Shown: positions 9,075 through 62,938, counted from the first letter of the stretch. The stretch is 64,000 nt of DNA from an uncultured bacterium (GCA_963980215.1 CAXBYZ010000001.1:7370-71369); one strand, 5' to 3'. The notes: generated by a model from the sequence alone, not told the origin. Numbers and translations are program-made.

Positions 9075-9088
9075 GACAATTACCTCTA

Positions 9089-9107
9089 TCACACCTTAGA
9101 GGTGTGA
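9089..9107. repeat. REP-like hairpin, family A (TCACACCT-TAG-AGGTGTGA)
   Basis: 8-bp stem/3-nt loop within the 21-mer ATCACACCTTAGAGGTGTGAT. Identical copies at 9819, 34731 and 47216. Confidence 0.7.
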
Positions 9108-9110
9108 TTT

Positions 9111-9785: not shown

Positions 9786-9818
9786 ATTTTTATTATAACA
9801 TTCATCTACCTACCCCCA

Positions 9819-9837
9819 TCACACCTTAGAGGTGTGA
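9819..9837. repeat. REP-like hairpin, family A
   Basis: TCACACCTTAGAGGTGTGA. Overlaps the last 6 codons and the stop of secF. Confidence 0.7.
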
Positions 9838-22776: not shown

Positions 22777-23117
22777 GGCTAGGAAGTGTGGTGATGCCCT
22801 GACTTTATGTCAGGGAGGAAAGTCCAGACTGCAGAAAACAGGGTGCCCAACGTAAGTTGGGGCTTGAGTAGACTTAGCTACCCAAGCCAGTGAAGCCACA
22901 GAGACGAGTTCTTTGTAAGTTAATTACTTATAAAAGAAGTGAAACGTCCTAAACCACAGTTGGTTTAGGAACTACTTTAACCTTTGGTTGAAGAGTGGTA
23001 ATTCTCCTCGCAGCAACTTCCGATCGATCCATTATGAGGATGTTTTCCCTAGGATCAAAGATTGAAGGCATTAGATAGATATCACCTTAAACAGAATCTG
23101 GCTTACTGCTTCCTAGC
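22777..23117 (+). ncRNA. rnpB: RNase P RNA (bacterial type)
   Basis: P4 halves GGAGGAAAGTCCAGAC (22815-22830) and AACAGAATCTGGCTTAC (23090-23106). P1 pairing GCTAGGAAG (22778-22786) with CTTCCTAGC (23109-23117). TATAAT at 22766-22771; T-run after the 3' end. Confidence 0.7.
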
Positions 23118-24113
23118 ACTTTTTTTAGGCTTAATTTTTAAAATTAAAATTGAGATGGCAATAACAAGCAGATAGCTTAATAAAGTTGGGGCGACCGGAA
23201 CGAGAGATAAATCAAATTTAAGTAAATGAAGTGGCATGGGGTGAGCTAGGTAAATAAGATAAGAGTTTTGGCCAAACCAAGCTAAGTATTTATTTTTAAG
23301 TAATTTAGAGGTATTGGTAAGAAAAAAGCCAATCAGACCAATTGCATAAATGAAGTTTGGTAATTTTGCAAAGCGAATAGCTTGAATAATATCCCCGCTT
23401 GAACTAACTATTTTTGAGGCTTCAAAAACTGATAAAAATAAACCTATAAATATTAGAGTGATTGAACTTCTCTTTGAGATAAACTTATCTTGACTGGCAA
23501 GGTAGATACCTAAGATGAAGTAGCCAGTCCAAACTAAAATATTACTGTGTTGAAGCTGATCTGGGATAAAAGGAATTTTTAGAGTGAAGTAGGAGTACAG
23601 ACCTAGCTTTATAACTAGAGCTAAGGAGAGAAGGGGTAGTAATAGTTTTTTGGGTAGTTTTTTTAGTAAGGCAAAGACTAGATAGAGTTTGAAGATAACC
23701 GGAACAAAGTAAAGATGGTAGTCGGCCCGACCGTTGAATATGATTTGAGAAGCTGACCAGCCACTTAAAACCTTCCACCAAGGTTTGATAAAAATTGACA
23801 AAGCTATGTAGTAGGCTGACCAAAGAATGTATAGAGGCAGGGTGGTGAAGCTTCTTTTTTTGATAAAAGATTTGAAGACAAAAGGTTTTTGTTGATAACT
23901 TAAACTTAGACCAAAACCAGACAGAAAGATAAAGATTGGGACGCAGAAACGCATGACTTGATCTAGAGATAGAAAGATTAAGTTTTGAGGGTGAGTGGTA
24001 AACTGTTCTTGAGTGGCGAGGGTAAGAAGGTGAATAGAAACAACAGCAAGAATAGATAGACCTTTGGCGGAGTTGACGGTGAGCCTGTCTTTATTAATTA
24101 AGGCGACAGACAT
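23103..24113 (-). CDS. acyltransferase family 3 (OafA-like) membrane protein
   Basis: 10-TM acyl_transf_3 architecture. 3' end overlaps rnpB by about 15 nt, antiparallel. Confidence 0.7.
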   Translation of the reverse strand: MSVALINKDRLTVNSAKGLSILAVVSIHLLTLATQEQFTTHPQNLIFLSLDQVMRFCVPIFIFLSGFGLSLSYQQKPFVFKSFIKKRSFTTLPLYILWSAYYIALSIFIKPWWKVLSGWSASQIIFNGRADYHLYFVPVIFKLYLVFALLKKLPKKLLLPLLSLALVIKLGLYSYFTLKIPFIPDQLQHSNILVWTGYFILGIYLASQDKFISKRSSITLIFIGLFLSVFEASKIVSSSGDIIQAIRFAKLPNFIYAIGLIGFFLTNTSKLLKNKYLAWFGQNSYLIYLAHPMPLHLLKFDLSLVPVAPTLLSYLLVIAISILILKIKPKKSARKQ

Positions 24114-26028: not shown

Positions 26029-27209
26029 TTAATAACTATTGGTCTTGTCTTTAGGTGGGGTTTGTTGATTAATCTCTCCAGGATTAGCCAACGATGTTTT
26101 TTTTCTTTGGGGGGGATTATGTCTTTGAATAGCTTGTCTGAAGCGGTGTTGGGCCGAGGTGAGTATTGAGCTACGAAAGCAACTTTGAAGCCTACTTTTT
26201 TGGCTAGATCGATAGTGTCATTGAAGTCTTTTTTGGTTTCTCCGGGAAAACCGACGATAATATCTGTGCCAAGTTGTATATCTGGAATTGATTTTTTTAA
26301 TTTTTTGATTAAACTCAAGTAGTCTTCTCTGGTGTATCCCCTGTTCATTTTCTTTAAAATTTTGTTTGAGCCTGATTGAACTGGAAGGTGAATGTATCGA
26401 TCGATTTTTTTGTGATCTTTAATACACTTGATTAAATGGTCTGAAAAATCCCAAGGATTGGGAGTGAGGAATCTAACTATTTTGATTTGATCGTACTGAC
26501 AAATTTTTTCTAGTAACTTAACGAAAGGTGGTTTGCCGGTAGTTTTTTTGTATTGTGATTGGTTGGTGGGAAGAGTGATATTTTTCGGGTCGTGCATTAG
26601 GAGTTTTCTTATGTTAATGCCAAGCTTTTCAAGACCGTAGGAGTTAACGTTTTGACCGACTAGAGTAATTTGGGTGTAGCCATTTTTAACTAGGTCATCG
26701 ATTTCTTTTAAAATATCTTTGATGGGACGAGATTTTTCTCGACCACGGGAAAAAGGAACAATACAGTAGGTACAAAATGAGTTGCAACCACTAGAGATAG
26801 AGATCCATGCATGTTTTTTGTCTCTTCTAATGGTGGGGAGGTTGAAACCAACTTCCATGATGGGGAGAATTTCATCTACAAACGGAAGCATTTTTAAAAG
26901 CTTTTCCTCGCCGTGGTGAATCATGCAGCCGGTGAGAATGATTTTGGGCCCCACTTTGCCAAGGCTTCGCGGGGTAAATTTTTTTTCTTGATTTTTATAT
27001 TTTTGGGAGAGATTGTAGATGAGACCGACGACGCGATCTTCGGCTCGTTGGCGAACAGCACAAGAGTTGATGATGATTTCGTCGGCTTGATTGACGGTTT
27101 TGGCGGGTTTAAATCCCCTAGCTTGATAATCACCGGCAATTCTTTCGGAGTCGGATTTATTTGCCTGACAACCGAAAGTATAGATGTAGTAAGTCTTGGT
27201 GTGAACCAT
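26025..27209 (-). CDS. miaB: tRNA methylthiotransferase, radical SAM (MiaB-like)
   Basis: N-terminal MTTase Cys triad (FGCQAN..., C...C) and radical-SAM CNSFCTYC. Adjacent to miaA. Confidence 0.8.
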   Translation of the reverse strand: MVHTKTYYIYTFGCQANKSDSERIAGDYQARGFKPAKTVNQADEIIINSCAVRQRAEDRVVGLIYNLSQKYKNQEKKFTPRSLGKVGPKIILTGCMIHHGEEKLLKMLPFVDEILPIMEVGFNLPTIRRDKKHAWISISSGCNSFCTYCIVPFSRGREKSRPIKDILKEIDDLVKNGYTQITLVGQNVNSYGLEKLGINIRKLLMHDPKNITLPTNQSQYKKTTGKPPFVKLLEKICQYDQIKIVRFLTPNPWDFSDHLIKCIKDHKKIDRYIHLPVQSGSNKILKKMNRGYTREDYLSLIKKLKKSIPDIQLGTDIIVGFPGETKKDFNDTIDLAKKVGFKVAFVAQYSPRPNTASDKLFKDIIPPKEKKHRWLILERLINKPHLKTRPIVIK

Positions 27210-33505: not shown

Positions 33506-33781
33506 CTAAAGACCACTAAAGCTAATCTTTAATTCTCCACCAAATGTATTTGCTAATCGTTTTAGAAAAGAGACTGAAGTTGTAGTTTGGGCGTTTTCAA
33601 TGCGAGAGATAACTGATTGTTTGGTTTTAAGTTTTTTAGCTAATTGCTCTTGAGTGAGCTGATGTTTGACTCTAGCCTTGATGACTGTTCTGGCAATTTC
33701 ATATTCAAGACAACTCTTTTTGAGAGCTTCTTTGAACTTTGGATTTTTTAACAGTTGTTTTTTGTGTGTTTGCCAGTCCAT
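33506..33781 (-). CDS. HTH XRE-family antitoxin (HigA-like)
   Basis: LTQEQLAKKLKTKQSVISRIEN is an XRE HTH. Downstream partner of the HigB-like toxin. Confidence 0.65.
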   Translation of the reverse strand: MDWQTHKKQLLKNPKFKEALKKSCLEYEIARTVIKARVKHQLTQEQLAKKLKTKQSVISRIENAQTTTSVSFLKRLANTFGGELKISFSGL

Positions 33782-33811
33782 ATGTTTTTATAATATCACA
33801 ATATTGTGATA

Positions 33812-34153
33812 TTAGTCAAGTGAGTTTTTTAATCTTTGCAAGGCTATCTTGATTTCTTTTTTAGGAGTTTTTTGAGATTTTTTGATAAAAGCATGGAGAA
33901 ATAAAAATATTTTATTTTTTTTAGTAAAGTAAAAAAACCGTATAGATTTCTTGCCAATAAGCCTTAATTCCCATAATGGCGTACCCTTAAGTTTCTTGAT
34001 ATAAGGTCTACCTAGCTTGAGGTTAAATTCTATTAACAATTCGAATGTATCGTGAACTTTTGCCTGAGAAGTTTCTGGCAAATTATTAATAAAGTCTTTA
34101 ACTGGAATTTTACCTGATGATTTAGTGTAGTATTTTATTTTCCATTTGGGCAT
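33812..34153 (-). CDS. type II toxin, HigB/Gp49 (RelE superfamily) family
   Basis: ...GTPLWELRLIGKKSIRFFYF...IFLFLHAFIKKSQKTPKKEI; toxin-first gene order typical of higBA. Confidence 0.65.
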   Translation of the reverse strand: MPKWKIKYYTKSSGKIPVKDFINNLPETSQAKVHDTFELLIEFNLKLGRPYIKKLKGTPLWELRLIGKKSIRFFYFTKKNKIFLFLHAFIKKSQKTPKKEIKIALQRLKNSLD

Positions 34154-34220
34154 TAGTTCATTAAATCAAATAAAACCCGAAGGTGTCAAGTGGGAGTTGA
34201 CGTGATAAAATAAATAAAAA

Positions 34221-34291
34221 CGGGGATTGGTTTAACGGTAGAATGCGCGGCTGGGGGTCGTGCGGCGACAGTTCAATTCTGTCATCCCCGA
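34221..34291 (+). tRNA. tRNA-Pro (anticodon GGG), no encoded CCA
   Basis: Cloverleaf built by hand. Acceptor CGGGGAT/ATCCCCG (C1:G72), discriminator A73, U8, A14, D-loop GG. Anticodon loop CUGGGGG (U33, G37). T-arm GACAG-TTCAATT-CTGTC. Confidence 0.8.
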
Positions 34292-34297
34292 CTATTT

Positions 34298-34315
34298 AGA
34301 TTGATATATCAATCT
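34298..34315 (+). terminator. perfect 18-bp palindrome AGATTGATATATCAATCT followed by TTTAT (tRNA terminator or operator)
   Basis: Self-complementary by inspection. Shares the TGATATATCA core with a palindrome at 30157-30175. Confidence 0.35.
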
Positions 34316-34318
34316 TTA

Positions 34319-34337
34319 TCACACTCCAGGAGTGTGA
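34319..34337. repeat. REP-like hairpin, family A variant (TCACACTCCAGGAGTGTGA)
   Basis: Same ATCACAC...GTGTGAT arms as the canonical copies, different centre. Confidence 0.65.
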
Positions 34338-34348
34338 TATTATAAACA

Positions 34349-34729
34349 ATGAAAATAATAAAGAAATTAATTGAACCGAAGTATAGAAAGGAAGGTGGAT
34401 TGTGGATGTTGGATATTGATAAGATTGAAGTGGGGTTTGAGGTAAAACAACGATCTATAGTACATATTCCTCCTGGCCAACTAGGAGGCAATCACAAACA
34501 CCCCAGGACTGAAGCGTTTATTGGAATTGGTAGAGAGTTAGAGTTGGTGTGGAAAGAAAATGAGAAGCTAATAAAAGAGATGATGAATCCAGGGGGACAG
34601 CTAGTATTGTTTACTATTCCTCCACAAGTGGAGCATGCGGTGAAAAATAAGTCTGAAGCTGAAAACGGGATGTTGATTGAGTTGGCTGATGCTGAACAAG
34701 ATCTGGTAGAAGTTTGTAAATTAATCTAG
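34349..34729 (+). CDS. cupin-domain protein
   Basis: Cupin motif 1 GGNHKHPRTEAFIGIG (G-x-H-x-H-x3-E-x6-G) and motif 2 PPQVEHAVKN (P-x-x-x-H-x3-N). Confidence 0.65.
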   Translation: MKIIKKLIEPKYRKEGGLWMLDIDKIEVGFEVKQRSIVHIPPGQLGGNHKHPRTEAFIGIGRELELVWKENEKLIKEMMNPGGQLVLFTIPPQVEHAVKNKSEAENGMLIELADAEQDLVEVCKLI

Positions 34730-34730
34730 A

Positions 34731-34749
34731 TCACACCTTAGAGGTGTGA
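34731..34749. repeat. REP-like hairpin, family A
   Basis: TCACACCTTAGAGGTGTGA. Sits 1 nt after the cupin stop and supplies the stop plus HTSKV to the convergent phosphoribosyltransferase gene. Confidence 0.7.
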
Positions 34750-35279
34750 TTTTGGAAATATTTGACTTGTTCGGGGGAGAAATTAAGGGATTTGAGGGAG
34801 TCGAGTTTGCCTAGTTTTTTAAGGTCGTCTATGGTCTCTCTAACATCGTAAGCAAAAACTACCCACTTGTCTGTTTTGATTTGCCAGTAATCTGGCAAGG
34901 GTTTACTCCAAGGTTTGATAATGGGAGTGAAAGTGGTAATTTTTTTGGGTTTTAGGGGCTTTAAATAATTAAAGGCGGCTTTTAGAGTAGTACCTTTATC
35001 TGTAATTTCGTCGACTAGTAAAATTGACTCGCCTTTGATATCAACAGCTAATTTTTCAACAATTTTGGGCTCGCCGGAATTGCCAACACTGGCGTAGGAA
35101 ACGAGAGTGAAATTGGATATAGGTAGCTTTAGAAAATCTGAGAGAATGCGAGAGATGACTAAACCGCCACGAGAGATACAAACAATGCGATCGAACTTTA
35201 TTTTTTTGTCGATAACCGTTTTTGAAAATTGAAAGCAGTGGTCTTGGATTTGATCCCAAGAAATGTATTGAAATTTCAT
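34731..35279 (-). CDS. phosphoribosyltransferase (type I PRTase fold)
   Basis: PRPP-binding motif ILLVDEITDKGTTL. The C-terminal NHTSKV and the stop are REP-encoded. Confidence 0.7.
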   Translation of the reverse strand: MKFQYISWDQIQDHCFQFSKTVIDKKIKFDRIVCISRGGLVISRILSDFLKLPISNFTLVSYASVGNSGEPKIVEKLAVDIKGESILLVDEITDKGTTLKAAFNYLKPLKPKKITTFTPIIKPWSKPLPDYWQIKTDKWVVFAYDVRETIDDLKKLGKLDSLKSLNFSPEQVKYFQNHTSKV

Positions 35280-35291
35280 AGGTTTACTCTA

Positions 35292-35310
35292 TCACGCTCC
35301 AGGAGTGTGA
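35292..35310. repeat. REP-like hairpin, family A variant (TCACGCTCCAGGAGTGTGA)
   Basis: One mismatch in the stem relative to the 34319 copy. Confidence 0.6.
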
Positions 35311-35327
35311 TTGGGTGGTGTATTGGC

Positions 35328-35906
35328 TTATTCGATTATTATATCAAGATTATTAAGAAGAGATAAAACTTCAGGCTGGGAAAACTTGACTTTGGTGAGC
35401 TTGTTGGTGGTTGGATCGATAGTGTAGTTGGTGGCTTTGGTAAAATTTGCCTTGGTGAGATTTGAGTTTTGGAAAACGCTTCGATTGAGATCGGAGTTGG
35501 AAAAGTTTGAACTAGTTAAATCGGTATCGATAAAAAAAGTGTCTCTGATGATACATTCTTGAAAAGAAGTATTTCTTAGGTCTAGTTTTGAGAAACTACA
35601 TTTATCTAGTAAGCATTTGCTGAAACTAATGGTAAGTAAAAAGGGGTTTAATTGAGAAAAATCTATGTCCGTTAGCTTGCAGTCTTTTAGACTAATATCT
35701 TTAAAACTAGTGGATTCTATGGAAACTTGACTAAGCTCACAATTGGTAAATTGACAGTCGGAAAAATCGGCATTGGTAAAGTTGGTTTTGGTAAAAATAC
35801 ATTTGGTAAATTGAGAGTCTAAAAATTCTTTGGCAGAAAAATCTTGATTGGAAAAATTTAAATTTTTAAAATTTTGATTTTCGTAACTTTGATGATTAAG
35901 GTTCAT
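35328..35906 (-). CDS. pentapeptide-repeat protein
   Basis: Tandem A(D/N)LxX-type pentapeptides (NFSNQDFSAKEFLDSQFTKCIFTKTNFTNADFSDCQFTNCELS...). Confidence 0.8.
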   Translation of the reverse strand: MNLNHQSYENQNFKNLNFSNQDFSAKEFLDSQFTKCIFTKTNFTNADFSDCQFTNCELSQVSIESTSFKDISLKDCKLTDIDFSQLNPFLLTISFSKCLLDKCSFSKLDLRNTSFQECIIRDTFFIDTDLTSSNFSNSDLNRSVFQNSNLTKANFTKATNYTIDPTTNKLTKVKFSQPEVLSLLNNLDIIIE

Positions 35907-35909
35907 ATT

Positions 35910-36668
35910 TTAATAGCAAAAATAACTACCAATAGGAGAAAATTCTTTGATGTAGGTTTGGGGGGTATAGAAAGCCGAGGCGGAACCGCCATCTAAATTG
36001 ATGGCCACATCAAAATCTTGATTAATTTTTTGGCCGATAATTTCTAGAACTTGTGGGGTTTCGGCTAGTAGGGGTCCGTTAAACTCCGAGTCTTTAGAAA
36101 CAATGGTGATAAATATTAGTTGATTTTGAGGGGTGAGAGTGGCGATGACTCTTCGCCTACCTTCGTCGTTGATAATTTTTAAGGGCATTAAGGCTTGATC
36201 TTTGATTAACAAGGGGCCTGACTGGAGACCAAAGTCGGCATTTGCTATTGGAGTGGTGGTGATAGAAAATTGATTGTCTTTTGAATAAATAAAGCCATTA
36301 AATAAACGGCTGGTGATTTCTCTTGACTTTTCTATTTTGTTTTCTACAAACCAACCTAAAGGTTGATTGTTTTGATCATAAAATCCACCATTGGTAAGAA
36401 ATGTACAGTTATGTTTTTTGATTAAGTCTGTGGATGAATCTGATTGAGGGAGGTTTAAAAATAATTGTAAGTTTTTTGAGTTAGGGACTAGATAGTAAGC
36501 AAAAGGGTAGGTGTGTTGGTGGTAGTTGACGGAATTGAGGGTATCGACTAATGACGGGAGTTTAACTTCTTGAGGTAAAGGTGTGACCCCTGGAGTTTTT
36601 TGGGGAGAGTTTTTGAAAAAGAGAAGATAGAGGCTGAGGATTAGGAGAAGAAAAAAGATTTTTTTCAT
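35910..36668 (-). CDS. secreted phosphodiester glycosidase-family protein (DUF2233/NAGPA-like)
   Basis: Signal peptide; NGGFY...GWFVEN and AINLDGGSAS motifs. Confidence 0.6.
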   Translation of the reverse strand: MKKIFFLLLILSLYLLFFKNSPQKTPGVTPLPQEVKLPSLVDTLNSVNYHQHTYPFAYYLVPNSKNLQLFLNLPQSDSSTDLIKKHNCTFLTNGGFYDQNNQPLGWFVENKIEKSREITSRLFNGFIYSKDNQFSITTTPIANADFGLQSGPLLIKDQALMPLKIINDEGRRRVIATLTPQNQLIFITIVSKDSEFNGPLLAETPQVLEIIGQKINQDFDVAINLDGGSASAFYTPQTYIKEFSPIGSYFCY

Positions 36669-37621
36669 AAGTTGGCGGTGACGATGGTTTGGAGTTGTTC
36701 TCTAGTGGTGGTGGCCATGAGTTGTTGGCGGAGATTTAGGGCATTAGGAAAGTCGTTGATGTAAACTTTGATAAATCTTTTTAAGACATGAATAGGTTTT
36801 TTATCTCCCCAATTTTTGATAAAGATGTTTAAGTGGTCATCTAATAATTTAAATTTTTCTTGAGGAGATAAATCTTTGATGGATTTTTGGGGATTGAAGA
36901 TAAAGGGATCGTGAAAGACTCCCCGACCGATCATGACGCCATCAACTTGATACTTTTTAACTTTTTGGTGAGCGTCTACTAATGAAGTAACGTCGCCATT
37001 GCCGATGATTAGAGTATTAGGGCTGATTTTGTCTCTTAGCTTAACCGCTTTTCCAATCTCATCCCAATGAGTGGGAACGTCGGATAATTCTTTAGTGGTG
37101 CGACCGTGAATGGTAAGGGCTGAGGGTTTGAATTTTAGTAAAAAGCTGATCCAGATTTCAGTTTGGATAGTTTTAAAACCAATTCTGGTTTTGATAGAGA
37201 CTGGGATTTTGTTGTTGGCACCTTTTATAGTAGCGGTGATAATTTTTTCGGCTAAGGAATGATTGTTGATCAAAGCAGAACAGGCACCTTTTTTGATGAC
37301 GGTTTTTTCTGGACAGCCAAAATTCAGGTCAACTCCGTTAAAACCTAAGTTATAAACTAGATCAGCTGAAGCTTCAAAAAGCTCGGGAACTAGACCCCAA
37401 AGTTGGGCGATTAAGGGTTTTTCTTTTGGGGTGTGATTTAAATATTGAAGATAGCTTGATTGATCGTGAGAAAAGATGGATTGAACGTTAACAAATTCGG
37501 TAAACATTAAGTCTGGTTTTCCGATATTAACCAACAATTGCCGAAAGGCCATGTCGGTGACCCCCTCCATGGGAGCTAAGCAAATGATGGGCTTTTTTAG
37601 GATTTGCCAAATATTTACCAT
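36665..37621 (-). CDS. dus: tRNA-dihydrouridine synthase
   Basis: ICLAPMEGVTDMAFRQL; TIM-barrel FMN site; catalytic Cys region NFGCP. Confidence 0.8.
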   Translation of the reverse strand: MVNIWQILKKPIICLAPMEGVTDMAFRQLLVNIGKPDLMFTEFVNVQSIFSHDQSSYLQYLNHTPKEKPLIAQLWGLVPELFEASADLVYNLGFNGVDLNFGCPEKTVIKKGACSALINNHSLAEKIITATIKGANNKIPVSIKTRIGFKTIQTEIWISFLLKFKPSALTIHGRTTKELSDVPTHWDEIGKAVKLRDKISPNTLIIGNGDVTSLVDAHQKVKKYQVDGVMIGRGVFHDPFIFNPQKSIKDLSPQEKFKLLDDHLNIFIKNWGDKKPIHVLKRFIKVYINDFPNALNLRQQLMATTTREQLQTIVTANL

Positions 37622-37638
37622 AGTGAGATGATTATACT

Positions 37639-38502
37639 ATGACTAAAGATAAGTACTCGGCTACTTGGGTTTCTCATTCTTCGATTAGTGATTGGTTGGC
37701 TTGTCCTCGAGCTTACTTTTTGAAAAATGTGTATAAAGATCCAAAAACTGGGCATAAAATTTCTTTAATGAGTCCACCACTAGCTTTGGGGTCGGCGGTA
37801 CATGAAGTGGTGGAGGGGTTGTCTGTGTTGCCAACCGATAAAAGATTTGATGAGTCGTTGATTAAAAAATTTGATAAAGTCTGGGGGAAATTTAGTGGTA
37901 AGAAGGGTGGGTTTGGGGATGAAGCTGAGGAGGGCCGGTATAAAGAGAGAGGAAAAAAGATGTTGAGGCGAGTGATGAAGTATCCGGGGCCTTTGAAAAA
38001 TTTGGCGGTGAAGATTCAGATGGATTTGCCTAATTATTGGCTAAGTGAAGAAGATAATATAATTCTTTGTGGAAAGATTGATTGGCTTGAATATTTGAAA
38101 GACGAGGACATGGTCCATATTATTGACTTTAAAACCGGAAAAAGGGCGGAGCAAAAGGGTTCGTTGCAACTACCGATTTATTATTTATTGGTAACTAATA
38201 CTCAAAAACGGGCGGTAAAAAAGGCAAGTTATTGGCATATTGATTTGGCCGATGAGCCGATGGAACAAAAGTTACCGGATATTAAAAAAGCTAATGAGAA
38301 GATTTTAAAAATTGCTAAGGAGATAAAGCTGGCGAGAACTTTGGAGAGGTTTAAGTGCCCGAATGATGGCTGTCGAGCTTGTAAACCAATGGAGAAAATT
38401 ATTAAAGGCGAAGGTGAGTTTGTGGGGGTGGATGAGATTCGGCGGGATATTTATATTCTACCTAGAACGAAAGAGGATAAGCCTGAGGGTAAGATATTGT
38501 GA
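37639..38502 (+). CDS. PD-(D/E)XK nuclease, Cas4/RecB-like, with 4-Cys cluster
   Basis: N-terminal Cys (WLACPRAYF), IIDFKTGKR (D...K) core, C-terminal FKCPNDGCRACKP Cys triad. Confidence 0.6.
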   Translation: MTKDKYSATWVSHSSISDWLACPRAYFLKNVYKDPKTGHKISLMSPPLALGSAVHEVVEGLSVLPTDKRFDESLIKKFDKVWGKFSGKKGGFGDEAEEGRYKERGKKMLRRVMKYPGPLKNLAVKIQMDLPNYWLSEEDNIILCGKIDWLEYLKDEDMVHIIDFKTGKRAEQKGSLQLPIYYLLVTNTQKRAVKKASYWHIDLADEPMEQKLPDIKKANEKILKIAKEIKLARTLERFKCPNDGCRACKPMEKIIKGEGEFVGVDEIRRDIYILPRTKEDKPEGKIL

Positions 38503-38513
38503 GTGAGTAAAAT

Positions 38514-39581
38514 ATGAAGAAAGTGAAATCAAAACAAATTGACGATGGTTTGAGAGAAATCATACTCTATAGAACAGCTAGTGATCAGGTTAGGGTGGAG
38601 GTTTTTTTAATCAATGAAACTTTGTGGCTGACTCAAGAGAGGATAGCTAAAGTTTTTGGGGTTCAAAGGCCGGCCATTACCAAGCATTTAAGAAATATAT
38701 TTGCTAGTGGTGAGTTAGACGAAAAAGGGGTTAGTTCCATTTTGGAACACACCACTAAGCATGGGGCTATCAAGGGAAAATCTCAGGTTGGCAAAGTTAA
38801 GTATTATAATCTTGATGTGATTATTGCCGTAGGATATAGGGTTAATAGTAAGCGTGCGACTCAATTTAGAATTTGGGCTACTAGTGTATTAAAAGAGTAT
38901 GTGGTTAAGGGTTTTGCTATGGATGATAATAGGCTTAAAGATCCTAAATATTTTTTTGGTAAAGATTACTTTGAGGAGCAGTTAGCCAGAATTAGAGATA
39001 TTCGCTCGAGCGAGCGTAGGTTTTATCAAAAAATTACTGATATCTACGCCGAGTGTAGTGCGGATTATGATTCAGATGAAGAAATAACTAGAGAATTTTT
39101 TGCCACGGTGCAAAATAAGCTTCACTTTGCCGTCTCTGGGCAAACAGCTGCCGAGATTATTAATGCTAGAGTGTCTAGTAGAAAACCCAATATGGGATTA
39201 ACTACTTGGAAAAATTCCCCTAAAGGTAAAGTTAGAGAGGCTGATGTGGAAATTGCTAAAAATTATTTAAGTGAAAAGGAATTAGACCATCTCAATAGAA
39301 TCGTATCTATGTATCTCGATTATGCTGAGCTTCAAGCAAAAAGGGGGCGAGTCATGTATATGAAGGATTGGGTAAAAAAACTTGATGCTTTTTTACATTT
39401 TAATGATCAGGATATTTTGCAAGGAAAAGGTGAGGTCAGCCATGAAGTGGCAGTGGCGCTGGCAAAAAAAGAGTATAAGGCTTTTTGTATTAAACAAGAT
39501 AAAAATTACTTGTCAGATTTTGATAAGTTTAGTGGACAATATTTGGAGCAGCTGGATAAGAAAACTAATGACAAACTGTAA
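38514..39581 (+). CDS. RhuM-family protein (virulence protein RhuM family)
   Basis: Strong similarity to the RhuM pattern from memory: IILYRT...VRVEVFLINETLWLTQERIAKVF...YYNLDVIIAVGYRVNSKRATQFRIWAT...LKEY..KGF..DD.RLK...YF.E...RIRDIRSSERRFYQKITDIYA...DY. Confidence 0.65.
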   Translation: MKKVKSKQIDDGLREIILYRTASDQVRVEVFLINETLWLTQERIAKVFGVQRPAITKHLRNIFASGELDEKGVSSILEHTTKHGAIKGKSQVGKVKYYNLDVIIAVGYRVNSKRATQFRIWATSVLKEYVVKGFAMDDNRLKDPKYFFGKDYFEEQLARIRDIRSSERRFYQKITDIYAECSADYDSDEEITREFFATVQNKLHFAVSGQTAAEIINARVSSRKPNMGLTTWKNSPKGKVREADVEIAKNYLSEKELDHLNRIVSMYLDYAELQAKRGRVMYMKDWVKKLDAFLHFNDQDILQGKGEVSHEVAVALAKKEYKAFCIKQDKNYLSDFDKFSGQYLEQLDKKTNDKL

Positions 39582-39876
39582 AGATAAAGCTTTAAAGTGG
39601 GTGGGTAAAATTCCCAAAGGGAAAGTGGCAACTTATGGGCAAATTGCTAAGTTGGCGGGAATGAAAGGGGCCAGGCCGGTGGGAAATTGGCTTCATACTC
39701 ACGGACAACCAATCACCATAGTTCCCTGCCACCGGGTGGTAAATAGTAAGGGTGGGTTGGCGAAAAATTTTGGAGCCAAAGGGAAGATTCAAACCCAAAA
39801 AAAGCGATTGGAGTCCGAGGGGGTGAAGGTTAAAAACTATAATGTTGATTTGGATAAATTTTTATGGAAGGGGTAG
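39568..39876 (+). CDS. MGMT-family DNA-binding-domain protein (retains the -PCHRV- Cys)
   Basis: 102 aa from ATG 39568 (MTNCKDKALKWVGKIPKGKVATYGQIAKLAG...IVPCHRVV). Overlaps the RhuM end by 14 nt in another frame; the track ORF 39382.. is an upstream alt-start extension. Confidence 0.65.
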   Translation: MTNCKDKALKWVGKIPKGKVATYGQIAKLAGMKGARPVGNWLHTHGQPITIVPCHRVVNSKGGLAKNFGAKGKIQTQKKRLESEGVKVKNYNVDLDKFLWKG

Positions 39877-39902
39877 CCCTACAAGGATAAACCCTGTAGA
39901 TG
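39877..39902. repeat. REP-like element, family B variant (CCCTACAAGGATAAACCCTGTAGATG)
   Basis: CTACA-AGG...CCCTGTAG imperfect inverted repeat with the GTAG/CTAC signature. Confidence 0.5.
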
Positions 39903-39912
39903 AAAATACAAA

Positions 39913-39931
39913 TCACACTCCCGGAGTGTGA
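39913..39931. repeat. REP-like hairpin, family A variant (TCACACTCCCGGAGTGTGA)
   Basis: Contains the CACTCCCGGAGTG core found in the rplM/rplQ insertions. Confidence 0.65.
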
Positions 39932-39936
39932 TTTGG

Positions 39937-40785
39937 CTAACTGTTTTTGCCGTGTTCGAGGACTTCCCCGCGACGGACAGTAAAGTTATAGTTTTTTAAT
40001 AACTTTTGAATTGTCTGGCTAAGGTCTGCTTTGTATTGGTCATTTTTGGCTTGATAGAATTTCTTGATAACTTGATCTTTTTGGCCGGAAAGTTTTTTTA
40101 ATAATCTATCTTTGATGTAGGAGGAAAGATTTAAGTGCTCTAAATAAATTTCGGTGGTGCCGGTGTTTTTGATGGCATCAAAGATACCGGTTAAGTTTCT
40201 GGGATTAGCAGAAAAATGAGGCAGTAAAGGACCAATAAAGGCGTAGGTTTTAATGCCCTCTTGATTTAGTTTTTTTAGAGCTTTTAATCTTAATGATACC
40301 GGCGGGGCGGATTTTTCTAAAAATTGACTAACCTTATCTTTGGTGGTGGTAATGGTTAAACCAACTTCAATTTTTTGGAGTTGGTTGAAAAGATCAATGT
40401 CTCGGGTGACTAAACTGGACTTGGTTAAGATACTGATTTGGCCTGGCCAATTATGCTTTATTAATAACTTTAAAACTCCTCTAGAAAGCTGGTATTTGGT
40501 CTCGATACCTTGGTAGGGGTCAGTAACCGAACTTAAAAAAATGGTTTTGGTTTTATCTTTGATTTTAGCTAATTGCTGGTCTAAAACTTCAAGGAGATTA
40601 ACTTTAACAAAGACGTAGTTACCTCAATCGTTGATACTTTTGCCAACAAAGCGACCCATAAAACTGGCATAACAATAACTACAACCAAAGGCACAACCGG
40701 TATAGGGATTGATGACGTAGTCGGCGTCTGGTAATTTGGAAGCGACTAAAGCAGTTTTGACTTTTATTTCTTTGACGATGTTCAT
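39937..40785 (-). pseudogene. radical SAM protein, SplB/spore-photoproduct-lyase-like, interrupted by one in-frame TGA
   Basis: Manual translation: [65 protein letters not shown]...EHGKNS. CxxxCxxC radical-SAM motif; TGA at complement 40624-40626; no Met downstream of the stop. Not in the ORF track. Confidence 0.6.
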
Positions 40786-40812
40786 TTTGGGTAAATTATA
40801 GCAAAGAAAGTG

Positions 40813-40839
40813 CCTACAGGGTCGGACCCTGAAGGTTGG
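40813..40839. repeat. REP-like element, family B (CCTACAGGGTCGGACCCTGAAGGTTGG)
   Basis: CTAC + palindrome CAGGGTC-G-GACCCTG + GAAGGT. Confidence 0.6.
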
Positions 40840-40885
40840 CTTGACGGTGGAGAGAATTTGGGAGAAGATTTGAATAGTAGGTTTT

Positions 40886-41563
40886 ATGAAGAAACTAAAG
40901 AAAAAGTTGTTGATATCAAAGTGGTTGGGATTAGGATTGCTGATCCCCTCTTTATTGCTGAATGCCTACTTTGTTAGTCGGCCAAAAAGTGATTATGGAA
41001 TTGAAGTGATGGAGGTGTTGGATGGAGATACTTTGCTATTGGAAGGGAAAACTCGATTGAGGTTACGGCAAGTGGATATGCCGGAACTTGATAATTGTTA
41101 TGGACAGGAAGCTAAACAATTATTGGAAGAGATGGTAAAGGGAAAGAAAATTACTATTCAAGATAAAATCTTGGATCAGCGAGGTCGAGCCATGGCTTTG
41201 GTCTATTTGGGAGATAGATTAGTCAACTTGGAGTTATTAAAGAATGGTATGGGACGGTATCATTCGGACAAAACTCGAGCGACTGAGGAGTTGAAAGCGG
41301 CCGGAGCCAAAGCGAAGGCAGAAAATTTGGGAGTGTACTCGCCGGAGTGTTACCAACAAGAAAAAAATTTGGAAAAACCGGAGTGTATTATTAAGGGAAA
41401 TATCGATTTAAATAATCAAAGTATTAAGAGATATTACTACCCGGGTTGTGCCCAGTATAAATTCGTGATTGTGGAGAAAGATAAAGGTGAAGATTGGTTT
41501 TGTAGTGAAGCGGAGGCTGAGGTGGCAGGGTATGTGAAGGCTAAATCCTGCCCGGAGGGATGA
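40886..41563 (+). CDS. secreted staphylococcal-nuclease (SNase/thermonuclease) family nuclease with C-terminal Cys-containing domain
   Basis: Signal/TM N-terminus; SNase motifs [36 protein letters not shown]-terminal KGNI...YYYPGCAQY...[13 protein letters not shown] module. Confidence 0.75.
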
Positions 41564-41581
41564 AGTTTTAAGAGAAGGTTG

Positions 41582-41604
41582 CCTACAAGGTTGGACCCTG
41601 AAGG
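41582..41604. repeat. REP-like element, family B (CCTACAAGGTTGGACCCTGAAGG)
   Basis: Same CTACA-GG...CCCTGAAGG framework as the 40813 copy. Confidence 0.6.
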
Positions 41605-41625
41605 AAAAAGATCATGGTAAAATAG

Positions 41626-42270
41626 ATGAATATGAAAAAGCGAATGTTTTTTGCGTCAAGCATAGATAGAGTGGCAAGTCATATAGTTGGGAAAATTGAA
41701 GGAGGAGTGGATGGACTAAAGTCGGTGTTTATTAATACAGCTGCGGAAGCGGAGGAAGGTGATAAAAGTTGGATGGAAATTGATAGAACTGGATTAAATG
41801 AAGCTGGAATTAAAACTTTTGATTATACTATTACCGGTAAAACTAAAAGTGATTTGGAACGAGATTTAGGTGATTGTGAGTGGATCCATGTAAATGGCGG
41901 AAATGCTTTTTATTTACTACTCCAAATGCGAAAGTCGGGGTTTGACCAATTTATTAAGAGGCAGATTAATAAAGGGGTTATTTATTCCGGTTCAAGTGCT
42001 GGCTCGATAGTGGCGGCACCGGATATTGAAATTACTAAATGTATTGAGAGTAAAGACTTTGAAAAAGAGCTTGGAAGTTTTGAAGGATTAGGATTAGTAG
42101 ATTTTATTACTCTACCTCATTGGGGTGGTGATGATTTTAGAGAATTATATTTAAATCAAAAAATTAAGTCTGCTTATAGAAAAGGGAATAAAATCATTTT
42201 GTTGAATGATGATCAGTATGTGGAAGTGGTGGATGGAAATTATAAAATTGTGGATGTAACGAAAGATTAA
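41626..42270 (+). CDS. peptidase S51 (dipeptidase E-like)
   Basis: GGNAFYLL and GSSAGSIV (Ser nucleophile) motifs. Confidence 0.7.
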   Translation: MNMKKRMFFASSIDRVASHIVGKIEGGVDGLKSVFINTAAEAEEGDKSWMEIDRTGLNEAGIKTFDYTITGKTKSDLERDLGDCEWIHVNGGNAFYLLLQMRKSGFDQFIKRQINKGVIYSGSSAGSIVAAPDIEITKCIESKDFEKELGSFEGLGLVDFITLPHWGGDDFRELYLNQKIKSAYRKGNKIILLNDDQYVEVVDGNYKIVDVTKD

Positions 42271-42273
42271 AAG

Positions 42274-42298
42274 ACCTTCAAGGACTGTCCTTGAAGGT
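42274..42298. repeat. REP-like element, family B, perfect 12-bp-arm palindrome (ACCTTCAAGGAC-T-GTCCTTGAAGGT)
   Basis: Perfect inverted repeat by inspection. Confidence 0.6.
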
Positions 42299-42351
42299 GC
42301 GGGAAAATAGTTTTCTCAAGAGAATTTTATTTGTGAATAAATTATAGGGTT

Positions 42352-42375
42352 ATACAGGGACTGTCCTTGAAGGTG
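42352..42375. repeat. REP-like element, family B (TACAGGGACTGTCCTTGAAGGTGG)
   Basis: CAGGGAC-T-GTCCTTG with one mismatch. Confidence 0.55.
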
Positions 42376-42392
42376 GAGGGCTAGAGTTTTGA

Positions 42393-42793: not shown

Positions 42794-43279
42794 TTATTTA
42801 TCCTTTTTTAATTTCTTAACAGACACTCCTGGAGTGGGAACTTCTTTCACTCCGGGAGTGAGAGATTTCTTTAATTTATCAGCATAAATGTGGGTTTCTG
42901 TTTTAAATATTTTTAATCTCTTTAACCTTGGACTTCTTAGCTTGTTTTTTGGCAACATGCTGGAAACTGCTCTAGTAATAATTTTTCTTGAATCTTTTTC
43001 TAACTGACGGTCAAAGGTGATTTGTTTTAAGCCATTTGGAAAGTTGGTGTGGCGGTAGTAAATTTTATTTTGTTCTTTTCTACCAGTTACTTTGACGTCG
43101 TTGCTGTTTATGACTACTACATAGTCTCCACAATCTAGGTGGGAAGTGAAGTAGGGTTTGGTCTTGCCGATTAATTTTTGGGCAATTTGAGTAGCGACTC
43201 GACCCAAAACTTGGTCTTTGACATCTACTAGATGCCAATCTCTTTTTATATCTGATTGTTTGGTTGCGTATGTGTCCAT
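42794..43279 (-). CDS. rplM: 50S ribosomal protein L13 with REP-encoded C-terminal extension
   Basis: L13 core; after ...IYADKLKK comes SLTPGVKEVPTPGV (encoded by the 42824-42860 element) then SVKKLKKDK. Confidence 0.9.
   Translation of the reverse strand: MDTYATKQSDIKRDWHLVDVKDQVLGRVATQIAQKLIGKTKPYFTSHLDCGDYVVVINSNDVKVTGRKEQNKIYYRHTNFPNGLKQITFDRQLEKDSRKIITRAVSSMLPKNKLRSPRLKRLKIFKTETHIYADKLKKSLTPGVKEVPTPGVSVKKLKKDK
42824..42860. repeat. BIME-like inverted pair of family-A hairpins (CACTCCTGGAGTG-GGAACTTCTTT-CACTCCGGGAGTG), in frame inside the rplM 3' end
   Basis: 36/37 identical to 43297-43333. The two hairpins are reverse complements of each other. Translated on the minus strand as LTPGVKEVPTPGV. 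Confidence 0.7.
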
Positions 43280-43281
43280 AA

Positions 43282-43701
43282 TTATTTCTCCACTTTCACT
43301 CCCGGAGTGGGAACTTCTTTCACTCCGGGAGTGAGTGAAGATTCTATTTTATCGACGAATTCGATTTTGGCCATCATGGTGTTGTCTCCCCTTCTTTGAC
43401 CTAGTCTAACTATTCTAGTAAAACCAGAGTTTCTTTTTTTAGCTCTAGGAGCGATAACGTCAAAAAGATGATTGGCAGCTTTCTTGTGTGAGAGAAAAGC
43501 CATAACTTGGCGACGACAAGACAGAGAACCCTGCCTAGCTTTAGTCATTAATTTGTCAATTAATGGCTTTATTGCTTTGGCTTTGGCCTCGGTAGTCTTG
43601 ATCTGCTCTTTGAAGATCAAGTTAGTGAGCAAGCTTTTAAATAAAGCTTTTCTCTGTTTGATGTTTCTACCAAGTTTCTTGGATTTGACTCTGTGTCTCA
43701 C
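43282..43701 (-). CDS. rplQ: 50S ribosomal protein L17 with REP-encoded C-terminal extension
   Basis: L17 core (...FTRIVRLGQRRGDN); tail SLTPGVKEVPTPGVKVEK. Confidence 0.9.
   Translation of the reverse strand: MRHRVKSKKLGRNIKQRKALFKSLLTNLIFKEQIKTTEAKAKAIKPLIDKLMTKARQGSLSCRRQVMAFLSHKKAANHLFDVIAPRAKKRNSGFTRIVRLGQRRGDNTMMAKIEFVDKIESSLTPGVKEVPTPGVKVEK
43297..43333. repeat. BIME-like inverted pair of family-A hairpins, in frame inside the rplQ 3' end
   Basis: CACTCCCGGAGTGGGAACTTCTTTCACTCCGGGAGTG. Confidence 0.7.
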
Positions 43702-47204: not shown

Positions 47205-47215
47205 AGTTACCTCTA

Positions 47216-47234
47216 TCACACCTTAGAGGTGTGA
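47216..47234. repeat. REP-like hairpin, family A
   Basis: TCACACCTTAGAGGTGTGA. Supplies the stop and HTSKV to cmk. Confidence 0.7.
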
Positions 47235-47938
47235 TTGATTAATTTGAGGTGGAGGAGTTTTTTGATGATTGCTTCTACAACTTGGTTGATTGTTAGTTTT
47301 GTGGTTTTTAGTAACCAAGCTCCTGGAACAATTTTAAGTGGATCTGCTTCTCTACCAGAATCTTGTTGGTCTCTTTTTTTTGTTTGTTTTAGAGTGGCTG
47401 GAAATGATTGTTTGGTTCCTTTTTTTGATAACTCAATGTGTCTACGTTTGGCTCTTGATTCAACTGAAGCTGTCATGAATATTTTAATGTCTGCCTTGGG
47501 AAGAACAACTGAAGTGATGTCCCTGCCCTCCATAACAACGCTTTGTTTTTTTGCCATTGTTTTTTGAAGATTGACCAAGTGTTTTCTTACCCTTGGAAGA
47601 GTAGCTACCGAAGAAGCTCCCCAACTGATTTTCTCTGATCGAAGTTCTTTGGTGACATCTTTGTTGTCTAACATAACAGTGCAGAAGCGACTGTTGTTTT
47701 TGGGTGGATAGAGCGAGATTTTTGATTTTTTTAGTAAAGGAATTAATTCTTTTTCATTGGTAAATTCAATTGAATTTCTTTGAGCTATTAGAGCGACTGT
47801 CCGATACATTGAACCGGTGTCGATGTAGGTAATGCTTAGTTGTTTAGATAGTAAGCGAGCGATGGTGCTTTTTCCCGCTCCAGCTGGACCGTCGATGGCA
47901 ATTTGAATATTCTTGGTAGGTTTATACTTTGGCTTCAT
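47216..47938 (-). CDS. cmk: cytidylate kinase
   Basis: IAIDGPAGAGKST P-loop and CMP-binding region. The C-terminal HTSKV and stop are REP-encoded. Confidence 0.8.
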   Translation of the reverse strand: MKPKYKPTKNIQIAIDGPAGAGKSTIARLLSKQLSITYIDTGSMYRTVALIAQRNSIEFTNEKELIPLLKKSKISLYPPKNNSRFCTVMLDNKDVTKELRSEKISWGASSVATLPRVRKHLVNLQKTMAKKQSVVMEGRDITSVVLPKADIKIFMTASVESRAKRRHIELSKKGTKQSFPATLKQTKKRDQQDSGREADPLKIVPGAWLLKTTKLTINQVVEAIIKKLLHLKLINHTSKV

Positions 47939-62224: not shown

Positions 62225-62248
62225 CCTACAGGGATCATCCTTGAAGGT
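62225..62248. repeat. REP-like element, family B (CCTACAGGGATCATCCTTGAAGGT)
   Basis: CTAC + hairpin CAGGGAT-C-ATCCTTG (one G.T) + AAGGT. Sits 15 nt upstream of the RAYT-2 start. Confidence 0.65.
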
Positions 62249-62412
62249 ATATAATGATTATAGATGCCTCCCAAGAATGCTGTAAAAAAATATAAACCAA
62301 GGTCTATTTATCATGTTTATAATAGAGGTGCTGGAAAACAAAATATTTTTAAAGATGAAGAGGATTACAAAACATTATTAGGTTATTTTAAATTTTATTT
62401 AACTCCCATAGA

Positions 62413-62436
62413 CCTACAGGGATCATCCTTGAAGGT
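62413..62436. repeat. REP-like element, family B, in frame inside the RAYT-2 CDS
   Basis: CCTACAGGGATCATCCTTGAAGGT translated as (D)LQGSSLKV, in frame +2 relative to the repeat. Confidence 0.65.
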
Positions 62437-62716
62437 GGCTCCATCTAGGGTATTAAAGAATCATGCTCTAAAAATTGAGTTGATTGCCTACTGCTTAATG
62501 TCAAATCACTTCCATTTAATTCTCTATCAGGAGGAGATTGATTCAATAAATAGTTTTTTGAGGTCAGTTGCAACTAAGTATGCAATGTATTTTAACCGTA
62601 AATACAAGAGAACTGGTCATTTATTTGAAGGTATATATAAGGCTGTTTTAATGAAAACTGAAGAACAGTTATTACACTTATCTAAATATATTCATAGGAA
62701 TCCTCTAGAGATTTTA

Positions 62717-62740
62717 CCTACAGGGATGATCCTTGAAGGT
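62717..62740. repeat. REP-like element, family B, in frame inside the RAYT-2 CDS
   Basis: CCTACAGGGATGATCCTTGAAGGT translated as PTGMILEG, in frame 0. This differs from the frame of the 62413 copy. Confidence 0.65.
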
Positions 62741-62914
62741 TATAAATATTCGAGTTACGGGAATTATTTAAAACAATTTACGCAAACCTGGGTGAAATCT
62801 GAAAAGGTTATGAGTGTGTTTAACAGAGTTGATCATGAATATTCATCATATAAAGAATTTGTTGAAAAAAATGAAGAAATTATAAAATTTAAAGAAGTTT
62901 TATTGGATTATTAG

Positions 62915-62938
62915 CCTACAAGGATGATCCTTGAAGGT
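62915..62938. repeat. REP-like element, family B
   Basis: CCTACAAGGATGATCCTTGAAGGT. Sits exactly between the RAYT-2 stop (62912-62914) and the rpsG stop (62939-62941). Confidence 0.65.

Follow-up and report, generated by a model that had tools for sequence, protein, structure and literature searches.

Between the recA and recX genes and the ribosomal supercluster of an uncultured bacterium lies a run of small genes punctuated by short palindromes, which raises the question of what these repeats are and whether they take part in the changing gene content around them. The run occupies positions 33506-42392 of the window analyzed here, a 64,000-nt stretch of DNA (GCA_963980215.1 CAXBYZ010000001.1:7370-71369) from which all coordinates are counted unless another contig is named. 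Relatives of rpsI place its source in Candidatus Beckwithbacteria (Microgenomates, within the Patescibacteria or Candidate Phyla Radiation, CPR). The palindromes are almost certainly genuine repetitive extragenic palindromic (REP) sequences of two families, each with a REP-associated tyrosine transposase (RAYT) of its own. On balance, the interval from rpsI to recA also appears to be a lineage-wide hotspot of gene-content change, set on a conserved backbone whose spacers are held by the two REP families, with the REPs as joints.

Nine short palindromes of the two families, A and B, are distributed over 33.5-42.4 kb (Table 1). Their order is tRNA-Pro, A, cupin, A, phosphoribosyltransferase (PRT), A and, after an interval, B, A, radical-SAM gene (rSAM), B, SNase, B, pepE, B, B and rpsI. 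An original prediction, made from the sequence alone, had this order of repeats and genes exactly right and also distinguished two families, but gave the number of copies as ten where its own diagram sums to nine. Family A is a 21-nt hairpin with the consensus ATCACAC-TCCNGGA-GTGTGAT or the variant ATCACACCTTAGAGGTGTGAT, and family B is a GTAG-tagged, imperfect hairpin of 23 nt with the pattern CCTACARGG-N5-CCYTGAAGG. The family-A core CACTCCNGGAGTG matches the window seven times, compared with 0.05 matches expected by chance, and the family-B pattern 11 times, compared with 0.11; altogether the window holds 14 extragenic REP copies or cores and nine that lie within open reading frames (ORFs). 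When 11 copies are folded as single-stranded DNA (ssDNA), seven reach z-scores of -3 to -7, and four family-B copies fold no better than shuffled sequences. The family-B palindrome is clear in a covariation test, with 88% of cells paired. In family A, the pair CACACTCC/GGAGTGTG of the window is replaced by CACGCTCC/GGAGCGTG in L001, L023 and L032 (L-numbers denote contigs of relatives or of other strains of the same species), a compensatory change for which the copy at 35291 represents a G-T intermediate. Rfam matches only tRNA-Pro and RNase P RNA in the window and no known RNA family at the hairpins. A CRISPR-like array was rejected on account of the irregular spacing of the repeats.

Each family flanks a cognate transposase gene in the same window, and what the original prediction called REP-like repeats are almost certainly true REPs. 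RAYT-A and RAYT-B, which together with their flanking repeats form REPtrons A and B, both exceed the Pfam cut-off for Y1_Tnp and are IS200-like transposases of the Y1/HUH type, 35% identical to one another. Across 73 homologues, neither the HUH motif (H82-F-H84) nor the catalytic tyrosine, Y142, varies. An AlphaFold2 model of RAYT-B (pLDDT 81) finds its best fold match among structures of the PDB in 4er8, the E. coli TnpA_REP protein bound to a REP hairpin (E 5.9e-6, TMt 0.71, rmsd 3.8 over 173 columns), which outranks ISDra2 and IS608 of the IS200/IS605 group. In most family-B copies, one end reads CCTAC, which is GTAGG on the opposite strand, and GTAG is a tag typical of REPs (PMC3733652).

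The association of gene and repeat extends to related species, since the RAYT genes of L027-L029, L032 and L033 are likewise flanked by their own REP family. Both genes occupy chromosomal sites that are conserved in related species. RAYT-A orthologues adjoin secF in L032 (80% identity, flanked by A1 copies) and in L033 (flanked by A2 copies, as in the window), so both A1 and A2 belong to the RAYT-A lineage. RAYT-B has the same fusA/rpsG site and the same layout of four hairpins in L028 and L029, and L027 has that layout at a different locus. As an observation in its own right, RAYT-B splits the otherwise universal rpsL-rpsG-fusA-tuf order by lying antisense between rpsG and fusA, a position kept in at least three species. 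Relatives of the two RAYT families number 2813 and 6238 in a protein collection; most of those listed come without the name of a source, and entries that do have one are mostly labelled 'transposase' and derive from Patescibacteria. Genomes with several REP families are described in the literature as having repeat-specific REPtrons. DNA-uptake sequences were judged a less likely identity for the palindromes, given that each family has a Y1 transposase gene of its own between its copies.

Some observations weigh against this identification. The covariation of family B is modest, with 14 double-change cells compared with 9.6 expected, and 31 of 500 shuffles reach 14. Family A ends in ATCAC/GTGAT and is devoid of the GTAG tag. 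Although the NCBIfam model REP_Tyr_transpos (NF047646) is the best match of both proteins, RAYT-B and RAYT-A reach only 34.5 and 53.3 bits, below its cut-off of 80, and neither RAYT gave a meaningful match to a solved structure when its sequence was searched against the PDB. Both proteins are distant relatives of the E. coli-type family.

The closest known counterparts are the E. coli TnpA_REP system with its REP/BIME elements and the REPINs of Pseudomonas. Shared features include many short imperfect palindromes that are mostly extragenic and 3′ of ORFs, the GTAG end of family B, an apparently single-copy Y1/HUH gene per family that is flanked by its own repeat and inherited at a fixed site, a fold nearest to 4er8, and the occurrence of doublets (the A core with its 24-nt period and the B pair at 42275 and 42351). 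What differs is the patescibacterial host, the untagged family A, a protein identity to the E. coli-type model low enough to fall below the NCBIfam cut-off, and the two in-frame REPs of RAYT-B, which change together with the flanking copies across four species. This is a known kind of system in an unexpected lineage, and what is unusual about it are the REPs inside RAYT-B and the ribosomal-protein tails described below. Patescibacteria are seen as having streamlined genomes with little mobile DNA; here, one window of a CPR lineage holds two complete REP/RAYT systems, and no description of REP/RAYT in Patescibacteria was found in the searchable literature. There is in addition a superficial likeness to integron cassette arrays, in which single-gene modules each precede an imperfect hairpin recognized as folded ssDNA. 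However, the present locus has no IntI, attI or attC, its genes lie in both orientations, and its enzymes are of the HUH/Y1 family rather than tyrosine recombinases, none of which occurs among the window genes scanned. Membership in the integrons was therefore rejected, given the mixed gene orientation and the lack of IntI among the genes scanned, and only the resemblance remains.

Table 1. Positions of REP copies, REPtrons and genes in the window (gene identities by Pfam; folds are of ssDNA)
Feature	Position	Strand	Location or identity	Remarks
REP-A, A1 variant ATCACACTCCAGGAGTGTGAT	34318-34338		25 nt 3′ of tRNA-Pro, 10 nt before cupin ATG	fold -7.8 kcal/mol, z -5.0
REP-A, A2 variant ATCACACCTTAGAGGTGTGAT	34730-34750		between convergent cupin and PRT	fold -8.3 kcal/mol, z -6.5
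REP-A, A1 with G-T wobble	35291-35311		3′ of pentapeptide gene, 5′ of PRT	intermediate
REP-B, degenerate	39878-39900		1 nt past ATL stop codon	
REP-A, A1	39912-39932		3′ of radical-SAM gene	13-bp perfect stem; fold -10.7 kcal/mol, z -7.0
REP-B	40813-40835	+	divergent rSAM/SNase spacer	sole copy of the region not 3′ of a gene
REP-B	41582-41604	+	SNase 3′ end / pepE 5′ end	
REP-B, perfect palindrome	42275-42297		3′ of pepE, convergent with rpsI	fold -10.3 kcal/mol, z -4.6
REP-B, degenerate left arm	42351-42373	+	3′ of rpsI	pairs with 42275
REP-A core doublet, 2 x CACTCCNGGAGTG	42824-42860	-	in-frame C-terminal tail of L13 (…TPGVKEVPTPGV…)	24-nt period
REP-A core doublet	43297-43333	-	in-frame C-terminal tail of L17 (…TPGVKEVPTPGV…)	
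REP-A2	47215-47235		cmk/map junction, inside ribosomal cluster	supplies cmk C-terminus NHTSKV* (read from sequence)
RAYT-A	9111-9785	-		Pfam Y1_Tnp 36.6 bits (cut-off 23)
REPtron A	9088-9838	-	RAYT-A and flanks	REP-A2 copies at 9088-9108 and 9818-9838
RAYT-B	62264-62914	+	antisense between fusA and rpsG	Pfam Y1_Tnp 33 bits (cut-off 23)
REPtron B	62225-62937	+	RAYT-B and flanks	REP-B at 62225 (5′ flank), 62413 and 62717 (inside gene, in frame), 62915 (3′ flank)
ParE/Phd toxin-antitoxin cassette	5495-6006		between direct duplicates of recJ 3′ end	duplication 5333-5494 = 6047-6208
higB; higA	33812-34153; 33506-33781	-	toxin-antitoxin pair (HigB/Gp49, HigA-HTH)	without REPs
tRNA-Pro(GGG)	34221-34292	+		ARAGORN, Rfam
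cupin	34349-34729	+	weak Pfam match	24.4 bits (cut-off 27.2)
PRT	34731-35279	-	Pfam PRTase	backbone
pentapeptide-repeat gene	35328-35906	-		seen only in window species
NAGPA	35910-36668	-		backbone
dus	36665-37621	-	Pfam Dus	backbone
PD-(D/E)XK nuclease	37639-38502	+		backbone
RhuM	38514-39581	+	PADLOC candidate PDC-S05	seen only in window species
ATL / MGMT DNA-binding-domain protein	39592-39876	+		backbone
radical-SAM (SPL-like)	39937-40785	-		one premature in-frame stop in this strain
SNase	40886-41563	+		
peptidase S51 / pepE	41626-42270	+		

Six related loci, with dus identities of 59-79%, show how the region varies between species. A backbone of ATL, PD-(D/E)XK, dus, NAGPA, PRT, tRNA-Pro, recA and recX is common to them, wholly or in part; ATL has been lost in L002, and SIMPL stands in place of PRT in L026. 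The slots between backbone genes differ, and in the REP-bearing relatives they are studded with REPs. The slot from rpsI to ATL is different in every species: it contains pepE, SNase and rSAM in the window, no genes in L002 (rpsI, B, A, A, PD-(D/E)XK), 12 or more genes and six REP-B copies in L023, the series MFS, B, B, rSAM, B, SDR, cupin, B, ATL in L025, no genes and no REPs in L026 (rpsI, ATL, PD-(D/E)XK), and ABC-F, MFS and Maf without REPs in L030. The gap between ATL and PD-(D/E)XK, two genes that adjoin in L023, L025, L026 and L030, holds RhuM only in the window species, as the gap between NAGPA and PRT holds the pentapeptide gene. PRT and tRNA-Pro are separated by REP-cupin-REP in the window and by an S66 peptidase in L023; none of the relatives examined has a homologue of the cupin. 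Beyond the tRNA gene, higA and a remnant of higB occur at the same site in L030. Orthologues of rSAM are present in L023 and L025, and both pepE and SNase in L023; there, SNase flanks rSAM on the side opposite to that in the window, a switch that points to shuffling of modules. Gene content and order therefore vary among the relatives; the same order kept across the lineage without repeats, which the original prediction had named as its refutation, was not found.

In the original prediction, the region was anchored at tRNA-Pro, which could mean an island formed by site-specific integration of modules at that gene. The tRNA gene does lie inside the region with species-specific genes (cupin, higBA) on both sides. 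Yet it keeps its backbone position between PRT (SIMPL in L026) and recA in L002, L023 and L026, no integrase domain was detected among the region's genes in a Pfam scan, and the largest variable slot adjoins rpsI, 5-8 kb away. In addition, the 21-mer at the 3′ end of the tRNA occurs once in the window even when up to three mismatches are allowed, and the island was dropped for want of such a direct repeat; higA, moreover, occupies its site in the distant L030 as well. Integration at tRNA-Pro is thus highly improbable, and no role of the gene in the region is demonstrable.

The REPs of the region fill its spacers far more often than those of the surroundings. Seven of its ten spacers hold a REP, compared with two of 22 elsewhere in the window when spacers flanking RAYT genes are excluded (Fisher p = 0.001) and six of 26 when these are included (p = 0.018), in a count built on a simple gene call. 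The bracketing of each small gene that the original prediction described applies to five genes only, since both higBA and the stretch 35312-39877 (pentapeptide gene, NAGPA, dus, PD-(D/E)XK, RhuM and ATL) are free of REPs.

A part for the repeats in these changes is suggested by five inter-species junctions at which a REP and one of its flanks are kept and the other flank differs. At the A1 copy at 34318, homology with L023 stops within 4 nt of the outer edge (34317|REP). The copy ending before 35312 has its ortholog at 11742-11762 of L023, and homology ends exactly at the edge, with the pentapeptide gene beyond it in the window versus the NAGPA stop codon in L023. At the REP-B ending at 39900 (ortholog at 3344-3366 of L025), homology extends at most 8 nt past the repeat, and at the REP-B at 41582 (ortholog at 200-222 of L023, upstream of pepE) it stops at the edge. 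For the REP-B ending at 40835 (ortholog at 2462-2484 of L023, upstream of rSAM) it ends about 25 nt beyond; a REP-B is found upstream of rSAM in L025 too, and the neighbor on the opposite side differs in each species. Thus, four of the five junctions lie within 8 nt of the outer edge of a REP. Conservation of a REP with one flank, and loss of homology at the REP itself, implies that the repeat predates the rearrangement and marks the joint.

Duplications in two genomes also end at REPs. In the window, the ParE/Phd cassette is enclosed by two copies of the recJ 3′ end, the last ~153 bp of which are identical, and both copies stop exactly at the REP-B-like palindrome CCTGCAGGGAGAGTCCTTGCAGG. This palindrome is in frame in the OB domain of recJ, and a similar one is present in recJ of L033 (9903). 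In L023, positions 5-223 recur at 2263-2485 as a ~220-bp duplication (97.8% over 223 columns) of the pepE 5′ end, its leader and a REP-B, which ends exactly at the REP and flanks an insertion of MFS, REP-B and hyp208. The same contig contains a 55-bp duplicate of the ATL 3′ end, located 5 nt from a REP-B. Further pieces were noted there: within 1-2485 the duplicated pepE 5′ fragment is fused to a 33-nt fragment of the SNase 3′ end, and 3942-4016 is a 75-nt duplicate of the SNase 3′ end together with a degenerate REP-B. As read from these sequences, the pepE and SNase fragments and duplicates of L023 are apparently scars of repeated rearrangement at REPs.

Taken together, there is about an even chance that REPs act as joints for changes of gene modules, as judged from the comparison of sequences. 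In the mechanism proposed, a RAYT would spread its own hairpins through cleavage and ligation of ssDNA at the hairpin foot, and the REPs would persist mainly 3′ of transcription units, where they probably also serve as terminators or stabilizers of mRNA 3′ ends. Once present, they could become joints for the gain, loss and shuffling of modules, a step that has been shown in part. Two routes are conceivable: excision and insertion of REP-bounded segments in the manner of a RAYT, or RecA-mediated recombination between REP copies that would loop out a circle, which might then re-integrate through a shared segment. The duplications that end at a REP edge fit the insertion of a circle whose junction lies at such an edge. 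REPs are join-points of tandem duplications in Salmonella. The breakpoints at REP edges, and the repeats as duplication joints and insertion targets, resemble REP-mediated rearrangement in enterobacteria and Pseudomonas. Insertion sequence (IS) elements are known to target REPs (PMC3733652). Here, however, single-gene modules and a toxin-antitoxin cassette are joined rather than IS elements, and the evidence is comparative only. If correct, REP hairpins that mark joints of gene content beside the ribosomal supercluster would offer a testable route for gene flux where classical mobile elements are few.

A more far-reaching proposal is that the REPs are the working joints of a RAYT- or RecA-driven system that carries units of a gene with its 3′ REP into hotspots and out of them and inscribes itself in proteins. 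The four concerted REPs of RAYT-B, the REP-A tails of L13, L17 and L15, and the ParE/Phd duplications ending at a REP could be taken as signs of such a system, which nevertheless seems doubtful.

Several findings weigh against a hotspot jointed by REPs. The rpsI-ATL slot varies in L026 and L030 without any REP, so a hotspot does not need them. REPs are missing from both sides of RhuM and of higBA, and only one side of the pentapeptide gene has one. Composition, to which the original prediction had looked for deviating bracketed genes, failed as a mark of REP-bracketed acquisition: the genes with low GC content at third codon positions (GC3) are the pentapeptide gene, RhuM, higBA and pepE, a set that does not match the bracketed one, as the bracketed cupin, SNase and rSAM are ordinary and RhuM is atypical yet REP-free. 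Within 33.5-42.4 kb, no duplicated flanks were found beside the REPs, the only matches being the recJ/toxin-antitoxin duplication outside the region and those of REP to REP. The evidence for joints consists of five junctions and three duplications, and in a compact genome breakpoints must fall in short spacers anyway. Finally, about 20 same-species contigs from several samples, 99.9-100% identical over the parts that overlap the window, exhibit no polymorphism in REPs or gene content, and there is thus no sign of present-day mobility; the positions of REPs differ between species, which implies turnover over longer times.

Several of these findings would be expected under passive colonization, in which a hotspot unrelated to REPs arises from the end of a long operon, convergent junctions and tolerance of insertions, and the repeats merely accumulate in its many non-essential spacers 3′ of monocistronic genes, without a part in the turnover or shuffling of genes. 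The variable slots and genes without REPs, the uniformity of the strains, and the placement of eight of the nine copies 3′ of transcription units, as in other bacteria, all agree with it. It does not readily account for the four junctions at which homology ends no more than 8 nt from the edge of a REP that is kept with one flank, or for the near-perfect duplications of ~153 bp and ~220 bp that flank cassettes in two genomes and end exactly at a REP. Passive colonization is possible and is considered the less probable explanation, and the hotspot with REPs as joints remains the preferred one. For the accretion or shuffling by REPs that the original prediction proposed, the four junctions at REP edges and the change of side of SNase speak in favor, and the REP-free variation of L026, L030, RhuM and higBA and the lack of strain polymorphism limit its reach.

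The placement of the repeats relative to genes has a bearing on their role as well, and it too detracts from a function as joints. Eight of the nine lie within ~30 nt 3′ of a transcription unit, the exception being the copy at 40813 in a divergent spacer. They follow tRNA-Pro, occupy the convergence of cupin and PRT, and stand at the ends of the dus-NAGPA-pentapeptide unit and of the PD-(D/E)XK-RhuM-ATL unit, which converges with rSAM, as well as after SNase and after pepE, which converges with rpsI. In other phyla, REPs similarly reside for the most part past the 3′ ends of ORFs, where neighboring genes converge or run in one direction, and some overlap stop codons (PMC3733652). Placement 3′ of units, combined with a run of units that each consist of a single gene, yields a bracketed look, and this is probably the explanation for it.

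Such placement could also mean that the hairpins are primarily intrinsic terminators or operators that evolved in place, their likeness reflecting selection for a good terminator rather than mobility. Consistent with this, the eight copies lie just past stop codons, and terminator-like sites coincide with two intergenic copies that have a T-rich tail (39909-39935 and 42274-42298, both on the minus strand) and with an arm of an intragenic doublet (42843-42865); terminator-like sites in the region are about twice as numerous as in shuffled sequence (25 versus 13.6). But most REP copies are without a T-run, a T-rich tail following two intergenic copies only, and the copy at 40813 occupies a divergent promoter spacer. 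Terminators would not be expected in frame within RAYT-B and recJ and at the ends of L13, L17, PRT and cmk, nor would they flank, family by family, a Y1 transposase gene of their own and change in sequence in concert with those flanks between species. It is thus unlikely that the hairpins are terminators or operators in the first place. A terminator role is compatible with their identity as REPs and does not replace it, and for the two intergenic copies with a T-rich tail, a role as terminator or 3′ stabilizer is plausible.

The most unusual copies are those inside genes. RAYT-B contains two REP-B copies, which encode codons 50-57 (LQGSSLKV) and 152-159 (PTGMILEG) in different reading frames. 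Its four hairpins share a genome-specific sequence in each of four species (the window, L027 at 5949-6677, L028 at 5960-6677 and L029 at 4459-5170), and the encoded peptides shift accordingly (PTGMILEG, PTRRVLVG, PARRLLAG). Both internal segments fall in low-confidence parts of the model, with pLDDT below 50 for residues 148-159 and a mean of ~70 for the block at the first site. The arrangement of four copies may reflect autoregulation or concerted evolution of the enzyme and its substrate. The searchable literature yielded no account of conserved REPs within a RAYT gene. Separately, in the window, L028 and L029, a TATAAT-like box directly adjoins the 5′ REP copy of RAYT-B.

Family A, in turn, contributes tails to ribosomal proteins. 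The doublets in L13 and L17 are 37 nt long and have the structure CACTCCNGGAGTG-11 nt-CACTCCGGGAGTG, within tail regions at 42811-42880 (L13) and 43284-43353 (L17). The L13 proteins of L002 and L026 (141 aa each) are without the tail, and L17 of L002 likewise lacks it, matching residues 1-118 only. The same doublet is intergenic in L002 (10446-10482), and similar tails occur on L15 (2445-2987) and L13 (9388-9999) of the sister species L001. Two contigs of the collection, L020 and L022, end at window position 42860, inside the L13 doublet; more generally, REP repeats explain some of the contig breaks in these assemblies.

Single REP-A2 copies form the ends of two further proteins. The copy at 34730 encodes the last residues of the PRT ORF, NHTSKV*, and the PRT C-terminus is unlike that of relatives past residue 150. 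PRT and cmk are unrelated genes, and, as read from the sequence, both receive the identical peptide NHTSKV and a stop codon from REP-A2 (34731-34751 and 47216-47236). The cmk copy has another peculiarity: 9080-9147 and 47207-47270 share a one-sided, asymmetric extension of the repeat, TTACCTCT, and ~40 nt past the REP at the cmk end are similar to the RAYT-A 3′ end (81% over 68 nt). To judge by this similarity, DNA adjacent to the REP might have been copied along with it.

Intragenic REPs, and stop codons supplied by REPs, have been reported (Di Nocera et al. 2013, PMC3733652). The Rickettsia palindromic elements likewise lie in frame in functional genes, often DNA repair genes, and may supply stop codons (PMC3733652), to which the in-frame copies in recJ and at the ends of L13, L17, PRT and cmk correspond. 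The present case differs in that doublets form C-terminal tails of ribosomal proteins, with L15 and L13 similar in L001, and that the other family resides inside its own transposase gene. Ribosomal-protein tails encoded by REPs and REPs kept inside a RAYT gene have rarely or never been described, and they provide handles on the co-evolution of RAYTs and REPs.

One other palindrome lies close to the region's REPs. Between higB and higA, positions 33791-33814 form the perfect 24-nt palindrome TAATATCACAATATTGTGATATTA, whose ends, TATCACA…TGTGATA, recur in REP family A; a function as operator or a kinship with REP-A is conceivable.

Over the parts compared with the window, the strains differ in only a 30-nt in-frame indel and single-base changes, which probably include the stop codon of rSAM. 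The original prediction listed rSAM as a pseudogene, and a single in-frame stop is indeed present here, as it is in L019 and a JGI contig; the gene is intact (282 aa), however, in L018, L020, L021 and L022 of the same species, so the stop is a nonsense polymorphism within one population. The indel, the only one between strains, is an insertion at 26949-26978 in a UPF0004/radical-SAM (MiaB-like) gene, whose product has 394 aa here and 384 aa in the other strains. Elsewhere in the window, an RNase P RNA (bacterial class A, 103 bits) at 22778-23121 fills a 418-nt gap between ORFs.

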